Assembly (NCBI GenBank): GCA_030324005.1
Contig: JARDVH010000194.1
Coordinates: 5,775,937 to 5,839,936 of the forward strand
DNA length: 64,000 bases
Direction of reading: 5' to 3'
Source of the DNA: Negaprion brevirostris
Lineage: Eukaryota
Shown: positions 37,103 to 51,639 of the stretch, piece by piece
How the letters are laid out: every line of letters begins with the position of its first letter
Numbering within the stretch: the first letter of the stretch is position 1
The notes under the pieces: generated by a model
Database searches by the model: none
Told to the model about the DNA's origin: nothing
What the model saw: only the letters and a program-made list of their open reading frames with translations
Made by a program: the position numbers and the translations under genes

Positions 37103-38007
37103 TGAACATAATCACAATTGTGACACTGGTGAGGAGAAACTGTGGTCTGTCCAAATGTGTCACTCGTTACCTGATGGCCATGTCAGTGGGGGATCTGCTG
37201 GTCATTATCCTCGACCTGATGTTGAGACACATTCCCGTTGTTTATTGGCAACAGTTTTACTTTGTGCTATTCATCCCCGTGTGTAACATCCACGCCGTCC
37301 TGCTTTATGCAGCCACTGACTGTTCTGTCTGGTTCACCGTCACTTTCACCTTTGATCGATTTGTGGCCATTTGCTGCCCCAAGCTGAAAAGTAAATATTG
37401 CACTGAGAAATCGGCGACTGTGGTTCTGGGAATAGTGACGGTGCTGAGCTGTTTAAAGAACATTTTCTGGTATTTTTTATTTTCAACTGGAATGTATCGG
37501 CTGGTGAACGACCCATGGTTTTGTGATTTTGAAATGTATGTTATGGATTCTCCAGTCTGGGTAACAATCGAGTTCCTCCACTACATTCTAACCCCGGGTG
37601 CCCCATTCGTTCTGATTCTGCTGCTCAATGCTTTCACTGTCAGACACATTTTAGTGAGCAGCGGAGCCCGCAGGAGACTCCGGGCTCACAGCAGTGGGGA
37701 GAATCCCAGAGATCCAGAGATGGAGAGTCGATGGAAATCCATCATTTTACTGTTTGTTGTCTCAGCAAATTTCATCCTGTTATGGTCGACATTAATGGCT
37801 TATTCTATATGGAGGAGGATGTATAATTTGGGCTATCAGTCGATAACGTTTGATCTTTTAGTTATGGAGTTGGGTTTTACGCTGCAACTCACAAGTTGCT
37901 GTACAAACACTGTCATTTATGCTGTGATACAGACTCAGTTCAGACGGCAGCTGACAAATCTGCTGAAATATCCCCTGACTGCAATTCTTCAATTCATTAC
38001 ACCCTGA
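37103..38007 (+). CDS. GPR139/GPR142-like orphan GPCR gene A, exon 2 (TM1-TM7, intact ORF)
   Basis: Acceptor TTCTTGACAG at 37102. TM1 Asn, MSVGDLL (TM2), C..DRFVAIC.P (TM3), ECL2 WFC, TPGAPF (TM5), CCTNTVIY (TM7), stop at 38007. Confidence 0.93.
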
Positions 38008-38064
38008 GAGGAATCTACACATAATTCTTCCTATCGGACATTCACATTATAAATAACAACAATC

Positions 38065-38782
38065 TCACAGAGACAGAAAGTGTGACAGATAAAGAGAGAA
38101 AGGGCAGTTAGTGCTACAGTGATAGTGATAGAGAGACAGAGATCGACAGAGAGAGGGAAGGACATCAATACATGGAGCATGACAGATCTTGAAAGTTTTT
38201 TTAACATTTACAGGGAATGAAACTGAGACACCGAGAGACCCAGAGATAGACATGGATTGATAGACTACAGGGAGAGAGAGAGAGAGATACAGAGACAGAG
38301 AGAAAGAACAGAGACAGATACAGACTCTCACAAAGCAAGTAAAAACAGCGATACTGACTGGGGAAATTATGGCGGGAGAAGGACGGGGAATGAGAAAGGG
38401 AGACAGAGCGAGACAGTTGGGAGAATACAATGAGAAAGGGAGACTAAGACAGAAAGGAAGACAGAAAGGGAGGCAGAGAGAAACAGATACAGAGACAAAG
38501 AGTGTCAGTGAATTTGAAACAGTAAGACTGAATGAGTACAATAGATACCGCAAGAGCAGAAGACAGAGCGAGGTAGAGAGAGAGAAAGGCAGAAATAAGA
38601 AAAAGGGGGACAGAGAAGAAGAATGAGGCTGAGAGTTGAGAGGAGGAACAGAGGAAGAATGTAGAGAGAAGGTGAATGAGGGAGATGCAGAGAGCCAGTA
38701 AGAGGCACAAAGAAACAATGAGAGAAAGAGAGAGGTACAGAGAGGGGGATGCACAGAAAGACAGAAAGAGACAGAGAGAGAC
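38065..38782. repeat. GA-rich low-complexity tract downstream of gene A
   Basis: AGAG/ACAG-rich. Homologous tract at 51700-52460 after gene B. Confidence 0.85.
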
Positions 38783-48000: not shown

Positions 48001-50728
48001 TCAGGGATCCCTGTCCAACTCCTGGGGTTCCATCTGCACCAATGCAGCTTTTTTTTTTGCTTTGAAAGCAGCTCCATTCTCACATATAGCCTGTTGGGAT
48101 TTCTCCTGTTTCAAGAACGTGTGATGATTCTCTGGAAAGGATCCAATTTGAGCAAGTCCAGTTCCTCGCAGCTCCCCAATGTCAACACTGAGTCTTGTAA
48201 ATGCATTCTCCATCACAGCCGCCCTGTGCGCATCATCAACCTGCATAAGTTCACTGGTAAGGCCAGGGCACTTGAGGTGTGAAAGACCGATTTGATCTGA
48301 TTTGAATTGATTTGTTTTATTATTTTCACGTGATCCAAGCCGGGAATGAAACTCAGGTCCCTGTGAGACAGCAGTGCTAACCAAAGTACCACCTTGATGC
48401 CGACTCAAAAACAACTTCTTCTCTGCTGTCATGAGAAGTTTTAGTGGACCCACATCGTATTAAATGATTTTTTATTCCACCCTAGCTATGATTGCAACAT
48501 TACATTCTGCAGTCTCACCTTCTCTATGTACAGGGTTACAGTGTTACAGAGTTCACTGTAGGGCCAGGGAGATGGTGTCTGTGGACCTGTTGGGGAGGTA
48601 GGTTAACTGTAGTGTATCCAGGCAATCTGGGAGGCCGGAATTCATTCATACAATGACTAAATTTTTGATGCATTTCATAACATTGGATATACAGAGAAAA
48701 GAGTTGTTGTTTGAGTGTCATACAGACAAAGCATACTGCATTCTATGAGTTGTTTGGTACATGTCCTCACACATTTTTTATTTTTTTTCTCTGATACAAC
48801 AAGTGGGAAGAGTTTATGTCCGTGGTGAGCTATTCCTTTATTAGGCTGGTTGATTTTGCGAGGTAACGAGAAGTTTAGACATAGTTAATGAGTGGGAGGT
48901 TAGTTTGAGTGATGGGCTGGTCTGCATTCACCAAGCTTTGATGGAACCATACCAAGGCAGAATGTTATTTATGTTGCATCTGTAAAAGTTAGTGAGAGTC
49001 GCAGCTGGCATGCCAAATGTCTGTAAACTGCAAAGAAAATAGAGGTGTTTATAGTTTTGTTTTATTATTATAGGGTCGTCATGGAGGAACCAGGAAAGGT
49101 TTTTGGTGATTTGGATCCTAAAGTTTGTAGCTCTCTTATAAGGTGAACTTCAGCCCATTGATGTAGATAGGGACATGAACTCCGCAGTGCTTCCAAATGT
49201 CGATTTGTTTTGTTGACATTGAGGAAGAGATTTTTGTTGTCGCTCCAGTTCATCCAGATTTTCTGTCTCTTCCTTGTTCTCGGTGTCATCGTTGTTTGAG
49301 GACTGACCCACTACAGGTTTTCCAAGCAAACTTGGAAATCCAGTTGGAGGGGCATTTGGCCACACAGTCACTAGCGTATGAGGTGTACAGTAAAGTGCTG
49401 AGGACACAACCTTACGGGGCACCACTGTTGAGGGTGATTTTGGAGGAGGTGTTGTTGACTGTCCGTATTCATTGCTGACTGCGCGTCAGGAAGTTAAGGA
49501 TCAAATTGCAGAGGCAGGAGCCAAGCCCCAGGGCACAGACTTTGGACATGAGTTTCGTAGGAATAATCTTGTTAACGGTTGAGCTGTAGTCAATAAACAC
49601 GAGTCAGTGCTACAGGGTTGACTGTAGGTTCGGGGAGATGTCATTTTTGGACCTTTTGTGGATGTAGGTGAACTGTAGTGGATCGAGGCAATCGGGAAAG
49701 GCGAAACTGATTCATGCCATGGCTAACTTTTTCGATGCATTTAATAGTTTTGAATGTCAGAGTCACCAGAAGACAGTCATTAGGCAGCCTGCTTGGTTTT
49801 TCACTTGGTACTGACCTTTGTTTGATTTTCTAACCTGGTGCATCGATTGCCAACTTTCCTGCCGAGGGAGGTTTCATGGAGCTGAACGGTCCAATATACC
49901 AAAGTGGGGCAGCAGGAATTGCACTGAATATTATGGAAGACAGCTATTCGCTGAACCCTGACGTTTTCATCCACTGTTGAAAGCAAACACTGGCACTTGT
50001 ATTCAGTGCCAATCGAGTGTGAGGTTATTTCTTCCTGTGTTGTACTAACGGTGGCCAGAATGCTATGGTCTCCTCTCCAGTGTGCAGTTCTGTGTAAATA
50101 TAACGGAGATTTTGTGCTATCAACGCATCAGGATCTCCCTCTGCCAACTGTTAGTGTTGTCCTGCGGTAAGAGTCAAGCCAGCACTGTTTGGTACCAGCT
50201 CTGATGCAGGGGTTATCAGTAAACTGTCTGTGAGACAACAGATTACCACCTACAGGAATCCAGTATGGATTTTCTATCAGGATTTATTCCGTCAGCCTTC
50301 TTACCCTCCAAATCCTCCATAAGGTCGATGGGCTATTTATCTGTAGTTGAGTGAGGGGCAATGTTGAGGACTCCACGGAAAGCTGTTTCCCAAATGAATA
50401 CCTTCGTATTGTTACCATGGAGGAGCACACTGGCACAGTGATTAGCACTGCTGACGCACAGCACCAGGGACCTGGGCTCAATTCCAGGCTTGGTTCACTG
50501 TCTGTGTGGAGTTTTGACCCTCTCCCTGTACCTGCGTAGGTTTCTTCCAGATGTTCCACTTTCCTCTCATACTCCAAAAGACGTGCTGGATAAAAATAAA
50601 AATAAAAATCAGTTATTTTATGTGGATGTGTGTATTTTTTTTTCATTTCAACCCATCCTCAGTCGAAATGATAACTTTTTTCCCTGAATCATGCCTAATA
50701 TTATTCTGTTTTTTCCCCTTTCTGACAG

Positions 50729-51639
50729 CGAACATAATCACAGTTGTGACTCTGATGAGCAAAAACTGTGGTCTATCCAAATGTGTCACTTGGTACCTGG
50801 TGGCCATGTCAGTGGGGGATCTGCTGGTCATTATCCTCGACCTGATATTGAGACACATTCCCAGTGTTTATCGGGAACAGTTTTATTTTGTGCTGTCTCT
50901 CCCCGTGTGTAACATTCACGCTGTCCTGCTTTATGCAGCCACTGATTGTTCTGTCTGGTTCACCGTCACTTTCACCTTTGATCGATTTGTGGCCATTTGC
51001 TGTCCCAAGCTGAAAAGTAAATATTGCAGTGAGAAATCAGCGGCTGTGGTTCTGGGAACAGTGACGGCGGTGAGCTGTTTAAAGAACATTTTCTGGTATT
51101 TTATGTTATTGAATAACTATCTGCTGGGGAACAACCCCTTTTTTTGTGATGTCACAATCGATGTTGAGGAATCTCCGGTCTGGACAACCATCGAGTTCCT
51201 CCACCACATTCTAACCCCGGGTGTCCCATTCGTCCTGATTCTGCTGCTCAATGCTTTTACTGTCAGGCACATTTTAGTGAGCAGCAGAGCCCGCAGGAGA
51301 CTCCGGGCTCACAGCAGTGCAGAGAATCCCAGAGACACAGAGATGGAGAGTCGGAGGAAATCAATCATTTTGCTGTTTGTTATCTCAGCCAATTTCATCC
51401 TGTTATGGTCGACATTAATGGTTTATTCAATATGGCGTCGGATGTTTAATTTTGGCTATGGGTCAGTATGGTTAGATTATTTTGTTCTGGAATTGGGTTT
51501 CATGCTGCAACTCACAAGTTGCTGCACAAACACTGCCATTTATGCTGTGACACAGACTCACTTCAGGCAGCACCTAAAAACTCTCCTCACATATCCCTTA
51601 CTTCAATTCTTCAACTCATTACCCCCGAGAAGAAACTAA
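50729..51639 (+). CDS. GPR139/GPR142-like orphan GPCR gene B, exon 2 (intact ORF; exon 1 not seen)
   Basis: Acceptor TTTCTGACAG at 50728. Close paralogue of gene A exon 2 with the same TM motifs. Flanks 48350-50728 and 51640-52870 match the gene A flanks. Confidence 0.92.

Follow-up and report, generated by a model that had tools for sequence, protein, structure and literature searches.

Two tandem receptor genes with divergent outer loops

We analyzed a 64,000-nucleotide stretch of the Negaprion brevirostris genome (GenBank assembly GCA_030324005.1, contig JARDVH010000194.1, positions 5,775,937 to 5,839,936 of the forward strand), hereafter the window, which is a gapped draft scaffold with 17 runs of N. 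From position 32797 to the window end it holds parts of five paralogous G-protein-coupled receptor (GPCR) genes: genes A and B, which are our subject, an intron stub (60168-60677), gene C, and a fragment, D. An original prediction, made from the sequence alone, held that A and B differ mainly in their extracellular loops (ECLs) through diversifying selection on the ligand-facing surface, as in recognition repertoires. On balance, we favor a reading in which both genes, as tandem paralogues, belong to a very large family of orphan class A GPCRs in cartilaginous fishes. This family, a distant relative of GPR139, would form a diversifying recognition repertoire, likely for peptide or protein ligands. 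The parts of A and B on which the argument turns are as follows.

32797..33019, plus strand: gene A exon 1, encoding the N-terminus, which contains a repeat of 42 bp (14 residues), plus the first half of transmembrane helix 1 (TM1)
35184..37102, plus strand: part of the gene A intron homologous to the B intron, which served as the neutral reference; stop codons interrupt its translation
37103..38007, plus strand: gene A exon 2, from the end of TM1 to the stop, with an AG acceptor and an open frame; Pfam 7tm_1, E=7e-17
37234..37278, plus strand: gene A ECL1, with three family-hypervariable sites
37276..37401, plus strand: gene A TM3 to intracellular loop 2 (ICL2), 42 residues the same as in B
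37477..37554, plus strand: gene A ECL2, where invariant Y, N, P, W, F, and C take turns with hypervariable sites
37819..37857, plus strand: gene A ECL3, with 7 of 13 residues unlike B
48740..50728, plus strand: gene B intron segment homologous to that of A, in a colinear block
50729..51639, plus strand: gene B exon 2, from the end of TM1 to the stop, open; Pfam 7tm_1, E=4e-20
50902-51027, plus strand: gene B TM3-ICL2, 42 residues the same as in A
51103..51177, plus strand: gene B ECL2
51442..51480, plus strand: gene B ECL3

Exon 1 of gene A ends at a phase-1 GT donor (33020) and, spliced to exon 2, yields an open frame of 375 residues; its real start codon may lie in the gap at 32681-32780. 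The colinear A/B block runs from 35184 to 39159 in A and from 48740 to 52868 in B, and its intron segment in A (35184..37102) is one that we take to resemble decayed LINE-type DNA. The two genes are kept apart by a 6 kb CA/CT simple repeat containing seven gaps (40800-46864). Searches upstream of B exon 2 by tblastn, blastn, and motif pattern found no exon 1 for gene B in the assembly, in which gaps occur at 46765-46864 and at six places between 42057 and 44962; this exon could lie in a gap, could have been lost, or could be supplied by splicing from exon 1 of A. Because B exon 1 is missing from the assembly, the N-termini of A and B are not comparable. At the other end of B, a 1-nt deletion after helix 8 (51595-51639) puts the last ~12 residues out of frame relative to A and the family; this shift may be tolerated, may mark the onset of decay, or may stem from misassembly.

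The closest protein to both genes is from Mustelus asterias, with 80% identity to A and 85.5% to B. The 14-residue (42-bp) tandem repeat in the A N-terminus (32781-32878) runs into the adjoining gap, and Mustelus protein P0003 has a similar N-terminus with about five of these units; the length of the N-terminus thus seems to depend on how many repeats are present. Elsewhere in the A intron (33989-34382) lies an array of ten tandem 39-bp copies whose origin is a SINE-like repeat.

Receptor class

Both genes encode class A GPCRs by their Pfam 7tm_1 scores (62.2 and 72.9 bits against a curated cut-off of 30.5) and by residues typical of the class: D30, the DRF motif, C60/C140, and W227 are invariant or nearly so, while P6.50 is missing and NPxxY reads NTxxY. 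The seven-transmembrane fold is borne out by the helices of an AlphaFold model (mean pLDDT 67.5, below 50 at residues 117-127, built without the first half of TM1) and by Foldseek matches to class A receptors. Eight of these matches reached E<=0.001, GPR139 came at ranks 16 and 19, and nothing informative was matched beyond class A.

We rejected the idea that A and B are GPR139 orthologues. Structural-alignment identity is 21-22%, GPR139 is absent among the 15 phmmer matches of A, and the family profile reaches it with an E value of merely 1.5e-12. The agonist-pocket residues E3.32, F3.33, H5.43, W6.48, R6.51, and N7.38 described in the consulted portion of PMC7318219 read L, Y, H, W, L, and F here. 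A Pfam scan for the olfactory receptor (OR), TAAR, V1R, V2R, FPR, and MRGPR families returned just 7tm_1 and a weak Srx match in B; no TAAR name occurs among the 240 listed matches, with no separate TAAR test made.

Distribution of differences between A and B

The four strings quoted in the original prediction for TM3-ICL2, ECL1, ECL2, and ECL3 are all present in the sequence. The identity claimed over 40 residues of TM3-ICL2 extends to 42 (exon-2 residues 58-99), and the 40 quoted codons carry four nucleotide differences and no residue change where ~14.5 residue changes would be expected under neutrality. ECL2 is as divergent as described, with 15 of 25 residues differing and a real one-codon indel, best placed at A residue 129 although residues 125-130 score nearly alike. 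ECL3 likewise differs at 7 of 13 residues; the ECL1 string is correct and differs at 5 of 15, but this is no excess over neutral change.

Differing codons are concentrated in the loops (27 of 53, versus 32 of 237 elsewhere; Fisher p ~3e-11, nonsynonymous sites). That A and B differ mainly in their loops therefore holds per site (51% versus 13.5%) and not by count, as loops contribute 27 of the 59 differences. Helix 8, which the prediction did not mention, differs at 6 of 16 residues. We drew the loop boundaries from motifs and hydropathy with the alignment already in view, and they match the helix ends of the AlphaFold model to within 1-3 residues (model loops 47-61, 125-149, and 242-250). Divergence of the ligand-facing surface needs a narrower wording: the rim and loops vary, whereas the deep orthosteric pocket is nearly the same, with one of 20 positions differing.

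Loop divergence relative to neutral DNA

The ~1.9 kb colinear intron provides a local measure of neutral divergence, with 367 differences at 1882 gap-free sites (Jukes-Cantor [JC] distance 0.226). Nonsynonymous divergence (dN) in the loops is well above this (JC 0.36-0.42), gene-wide synonymous divergence (dS) is 0.17-0.21, and dN outside the loops is ~0.07. Relaxed constraint only would have left loop dN/dS (omega) at or below 1 and loop divergence within that of the intron; instead, loop dN exceeds both gene-wide dS and the intron. A fixed-site codon model with shared dS gave a loop omega of 2.25 against 0.39 elsewhere (likelihood-ratio test against omega=1, p=0.0025). Another gap placement raised it to 2.56 (also shared dS; p from 0.0025 to 0.0004 over placements), and dropping the indel zone (residues 125-130) left it at 2.05 (p=0.011).

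Simulation with the intron's substitution matrix supplied a neutral expectation for residue changes. ECL2 and ECL3 together carry 22 changes in 38 residues against ~14 expected (p ~0.006), and ECL2 alone carries 15 against 9 (p ~0.015). Among 1808 segments of 75 nt taken along the intron, just 2 (0.1%) reach the 24 differences of ECL2. We also defined 18 hypervariable sites from 120 homologues excluding A and B, which lessens circularity; A and B differ at 13 of these against 6.7 expected (p ~0.002-0.003). The figure of 13 of 18 is unchanged when the sites are drawn from 58 horn shark proteins or from the 62 others, with 15 of the 18 sites common.

A large family in cartilaginous fishes

Gene C belongs to the same family but to another subfamily, with ~50% identity to A; it has two coding exons, and both A and C carry a phase-1 intron in TM1. 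A search of the protein database with A returned 1841 clusters (built at 90% identity) with E<=0.001. The top 120 all came from sharks, and 119 of these bore the automatic name 'probable GPR139'; gene C returned 1784 clusters. Horn shark accounts for 58 of the best 120 A-type matches and for 72 of the best 120 C-type matches (the latter counted by hand), and about 50 of these 72 listed C-type matches lie on one 59.5-Mb contig (hand count). Among the 240 matches listed, this species has at least 130 distinct clusters at 90% identity, in which haplotype duplicates may be included, and some horn shark clusters have 7-15 members.

A profile search gave 134 representatives at 50% identity and E<=1e-30. 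We used 63 of 150 representatives, having dropped those outside 290-480 amino acids or ranked below P0215; among these 63 near-full-length sequences, the 15 that were identified all come from sharks, rays, or chimaera. Two further rows were dropped, P0499 with a garbled ECL2 from a catshark cluster and the unnamed P0357 from subfamily C (118 used). Bony-vertebrate relatives occur in coelacanth, silverside, sturgeon, and amphibians. A word-index search with a salamander query found 20 amphibian clusters among 25 matches, each from a different species, which suggests that the amphibian relatives are likely single copy.

In a FastTree phylogeny rooted on a leech receptor and built without true GPR139 and GPR142, the shark-type sequences form one clade (support 0.97) with the amphibian group as sister (0.87). 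In this tree without true GPR139/GPR142, coelacanth, teleost, and salamander proteins branch beside the shark clade (0.87-0.97). A separate maximum-likelihood tree is unrooted and served for site rates and identities alone.

The amphibian/sturgeon orphan receptor (P0232, P0404-P0423), conserved, apparently single-copy, and mis-named GPR139, has a deep pocket of 0.03 bits entropy and would be a good handle on the ancestral ligand. Two irregular models were seen among the family proteins. The cluster of P0181 (P0401/P0402) groups a bamboo shark member with a RING-type domain-containing protein, which suggests a fused or mis-joined gene model, and P0001 and P0002 have a duplicated C-terminal TM6-7 segment, judged by length and the P0001 sequence.

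Hypervariable sites on a conserved frame

Within the A/B subfamily, TM3 has an entropy of 0.21 bits, and ECL2 (1.7) and ECL3 (2.0) are the most variable parts. The exon-2 sites above 2.5 bits number 18, all in loops or the outer end of TM6 and interleaved with invariant residues; the N-terminus and outer TM1 hold 17 further hypervariable sites with roughly helical spacing. Maximum-likelihood site rates are 2.7 in loops, 6.8 at the 18 sites, and 0.44 elsewhere. We assigned pocket and rim positions by motif-anchored numbering, using a position list that we assume from class A pharmacology. On this basis, 20 deep-pocket positions of the A/B subfamily average 0.45 bits against 0.55 for other TM sites and 1.69 for the rim. 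Subfamily C is reversed, its deep pocket standing at 1.44 bits against 0.62 (p=2e-6; TM3, TM5, and TM6) and its loops at just 1.11, although overall divergence is alike (72% in C, 74% in A/B). Across 63 distant representatives, the pocket reaches 2.7 bits, the rim 3.0, and the intracellular face 1.3.

Nine A-type clusters of close paralogues were compared, the 18 sites being defined from other sharks for the horn shark clusters. In the horn shark clusters of P0041 (12 proteins) and P0034 (9), the members differ at 62% and 64% of these sites versus 2.6% and 3.7% elsewhere; 56 of 78 changes in P0041 and 43 of 75 in P0034 fall on them, a 17-25-fold concentration. A catshark cluster shows an 8-fold concentration (16 of 39 changes). 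By contrast, 20 amphibian relatives with a mean identity of 77% show no loop excess (0.49 bits in loops, 0.55 in the rest); loop variability is thus no general property of the fold.

At the 18 sites, Trp and Tyr together account for 20.7% of residues; the base composition of the intron predicts 6.3%, and the share at 19 variable sites on the intracellular side is 0.9%. Trp occurs at five times its neutral frequency. Loop motifs recur as a patchwork among close paralogues, distance at the variable sites barely follows distance elsewhere (rho 0.24 and 0.05), and ECL3 is uncorrelated with ECL1 and ECL2 in one cluster. This patchwork suggests gene conversion between copies. The ECL2 of A is closer to horn shark proteins, with 15 of 24 positions in agreement, than to B.

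Selection, relaxation, and conversion

The divergence of the outer loops and pocket rim, which outpaces that of neutral DNA around a fixed core, in our view likely reflects diversifying selection. The proteins of other members point to positive selection that would act across the family, and family size together with the variability pattern lends support to the term 'recognition repertoire' for what the sequences would encode. For the A/B pair itself, the prediction of diversifying selection stands for ECL2 and ECL3, which exceed the intron and gene-wide dS; it is not supported for ECL1, and omega is not significantly above 1 when the loops are given their own dS.

A number of results count against selection and bear on an alternative that dispenses with it, namely relaxed constraint combined with gene conversion, in which loops drift or are imported from older paralogues while conversion homogenizes the frame. 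Loops given their own dS have an omega of 1.4-1.6 (p=0.31-0.43), the 18 sites treated likewise 3.1 (p=0.17), and all such variants lie between 1.4 and 3.1 (p=0.10-0.43), the loops holding merely ~36-43 synonymous sites. The proportion of synonymous differences in the loops is raised, though not significantly (0.24 versus 0.17), as an older converted tract would give, and four-fold sites differ at 5 of 51 positions in the N-terminal half versus 12 of 54 in the rest. Taken by itself, ECL3 does not reach significance (7 changes, 4.8 expected; p ~0.15), and ECL1 is neutral-like (5 versus 5.3). At 136 conserved sites, A departs 8 times and B 6 times against a family median of 3; with omega ~0.4 outside the loops, the B tail frameshift, and the lack of an assembled B exon 1, these departures make some relaxation in A and B likely. 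Family-wide, three clusters from other sharks reach 4-6-fold concentration, within reach of neutral sites on a constrained frame, and three very young horn shark clusters (97-99% identical) reach 1.5-2.5-fold, which is not significant. The aromatic enrichment could stem partly from the membrane interface, and the family sequences are not phylogenetically independent.

One pair cannot tell selection from an older converted tract, and the signs of decay in A, B, and C, like the likeness of the A ECL2 to horn shark proteins, fit relaxation with conversion. We nonetheless consider this alternative improbable. Variable and invariant sites alternate codon by codon, which is impossible for conversion tracts; neutral sites on a frame with an omega of 0.3 would give a concentration of ~3-fold, far below the 17-25-fold of two clusters; Trp occurs at five times its neutral frequency; and ECL2 and ECL3 diverge more than even the intron.

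A proposed receptor repertoire and its rivals

Under the repertoire reading that we favor, a motif common to the ligands would be read by the conserved polar deep pocket (D2.57, R2.61, H3.28, D3.37, E5.39, H5.42, and Q7.42), and recognition of the variable portion of a large peptide or protein ligand would fall to the rim, rich in Trp, Tyr, Arg, and Asp, in the manner of a 'message-address' scheme. Each receptor would thus recognize a different peptide or protein, and all copies would signal through a common intracellular face. Copies would be born by tandem duplication, their rims would diversify under selection with motifs swapped between copies by gene conversion, and they would often decay. 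The B tail and the departures of A at conserved sites fit such birth-and-decay turnover, as does gene C, which lacks four TM5 residues that its subfamily conserves and may be damaged. A negative result also has to be set against this model: the examined portion of bamboo shark immune single-cell marker tables, which use the same RefSeq names, contained no family member. It is a weak negative, as repertoire genes with sparse expression rarely stand out among cluster markers.

More tentatively, and at less than even odds in our judgment, the family may amount to a hidden germline repertoire of hundreds of GPCRs whose loops serve as a paratope, with ~18 reshuffled, aromatic-rich positions directed at foreign or individual-specific proteins in an innate immune or chemosensory role.

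It seems unlikely that the family is instead a repertoire of small-molecule chemosensors for amino-acid derivatives, deployed like odorant receptors in nose, skin, or gut with loops that tune ligand entry. Odorant receptors vary in the deep pocket and TM3; A and B show the opposite pattern, with 19 of 20 deep-pocket positions identical and TM3 invariant. Retention of H5.42, W6.48, and an aromatic residue at 3.33 speaks for small-molecule sensing, as do the variable deep pocket of subfamily C (1.44 versus 0.62 bits, p=2e-6) and the nearest solved relative by profile, GPR139 (E=1.5e-12), which according to the portion of PMC7318219 consulted responds to L-Trp and L-Phe. However, the polar pocket residues of GPR139 at 3.32, 6.51, and 7.38/39 are L, L, and F here. 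Also in favor of this reading, sharks have few canonical olfactory receptors (PMC10116579, in part), but the top-50 list of a catshark brain and olfactory epithelium library, as given in the part of PMC11979771 consulted, includes no GPCR.

Least probable of the readings is escape. Here a pathogen protein or parasite toxin would dock on the loops, these would diversify to evade it, and all copies would keep one endogenous ligand in the conserved deep pocket. Arms-race receptors lend this reading a precedent, and the A/B-subfamily pocket is frozen (0.45 bits, like other TM sites) beneath a varying rim and loops, but escape has no need for over a hundred retained copies, the Trp/Tyr enrichment suggests that contacts are gained rather than lost, and the pocket is unlike between subfamilies.

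Other features of the window

The remaining receptor paralogues lie downstream of B.

60168..60677, plus strand: 3' end of the intron of a third A/B-type paralogue; blastn 71-75% to 36574-37080 and 50169-50705
60779..62449, minus strand: gene C, with exon 1 at 62449-62380 and exon 2, which runs from 61543 and breaks off at a gap past ECL3
63880..64000, minus strand: TM3-TM4 fragment of paralogue D, bounded by a gap and by the end of the window; tblastn 72-77% over 39 amino acids

Exon 2 of the third A/B-type paralogue would start inside the gap at 60679-60778. The plus-strand intron stub and minus-strand gene C meet head-on at this same 100-N gap; since both run into it, at least one whole exon 2 is hidden and the cluster is under-assembled.

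The first part of the window contains an immunoglobulin (Ig) heavy-chain V-D-D-J set on the minus strand (7134-8886), with segments flanked by recombination signal sequences (RSSs).

8886-8841, minus strand: Ig leader
to 8417, minus strand: open VH, with an RSS heptamer at 8416
near 7982-7968 and 7590-7577, minus strand: two RSS-flanked D segments
ending at 7134, minus strand: JH

We take this set to resemble a shark IgM cluster; its VH has Cys at a framework 2 position where Trp is, we presume, the usual residue. The region 1-7133 yielded no Ig constant exon, and sixty other open reading frames in 1-32000 gave no Pfam match. A second copy of the VH promoter region (22341-22700, minus strand; 82% identical to 8934-9304) runs into the gap at 22241-22340, so another Ig cluster start was probably lost there. 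Upstream blocks at 9554-16986 are repeated at 22770-29230 and at 55716-56887, the latter among the GPCR genes. With the scaffold so gapped, the adjacency of GPCR genes and Ig clusters is a lead at most. A 217-codon open frame next to a gap (21589-22239, plus strand) has no Pfam match and reads like part of a LINE ORF2.

Novelty and significance

Our literature search found no description of this expansion, its size, or its loop hypervariability, which may be described in sources outside that search; keyword searches of shark genome papers, and the parts consulted of the supplements of PMC11372145, PMC10529500, and PMC8455134, gave no match for the family. Expanded GPCR repertoires under diversifying selection are already known, and what is apparently undescribed is a shark family with loop-centered hypervariability. 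In the part consulted, the whale shark genome paper describes GPCRs as relatively few in cartilaginous fishes (PMC8455134); olfactory receptors, too, are reported to be scarce in sharks (PMC10116579, in part). That one shark has at least 130 distinct members of a family hidden behind the automatic name 'probable GPR139' runs counter to this picture.

The 18-site map makes it directly testable whether the family is an unrecognized sensory or immune recognition system. Loop- and pocket-diversifying subfamilies, with a conserved, apparently single-copy amphibian control, make a useful model of how GPCR specificity evolves. If true, a paratope-like repertoire would mean innate immune recognition among immunoglobulin clusters, or a chemosensory family that explains the few canonical olfactory receptors.

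Comparison with known systems

The family most resembling ours by profile is GPR139/GPR142: GPR139 is the best match in the Protein Data Bank (E=1.5e-12) and the source of the automatic name; H5.42/43 and W6.48 are shared, as the arrangement in two coding exons may be. The differences are considerable. GPR139 is highly conserved, with 70% identity between human and zebrafish in the portion of PMC7318219 consulted, whereas the shark family is hugely multiplied; three of the six named pocket residues are non-polar in the shark family, and it has a TM3 cysteine that the aligned GPR139 lacks.

Beside GPR139/142 stand GPR210A/B, fish and coelacanth orphans (PMC6504862, in part), to which the shark family may correspond. 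The shark family has relatives in coelacanth, silverside, sturgeon, and amphibians, which lie outside the shark clade in the FastTree phylogeny. Sharks have no occurrence in the consulted text of the survey that describes GPR210A/B (PMC6504862), and the amphibian relatives occur once per species with conserved loops.

A parallel of another kind is provided by the OR, TAAR, V1R, V2R, FPR, and MRGPR families. We note the tandem copies, damaged copies, conserved signaling face, and diversified ligand side in the shark family. The same traits mark those chemoreceptor families, which lie in tandem clusters and evolve by birth and death with damaged copies, a conserved signaling face, and a diversified ligand side. 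The difference lies in where diversity resides, since the A/B subfamily varies its loops and rim over a frozen TM pocket.

A further analogy in pattern is with MHC-like or paratope-like hypervariability, in which a few hypervariable positions sit on a fixed frame. Here 18 such sites, rich in Trp, Tyr, Arg, and Asp, sit on a fixed frame, with motifs shared patchwise between copies. The shark proteins differ in being germline GPCRs that show no sign of somatic rearrangement and have neither a peptide-binding groove nor an Ig fold.

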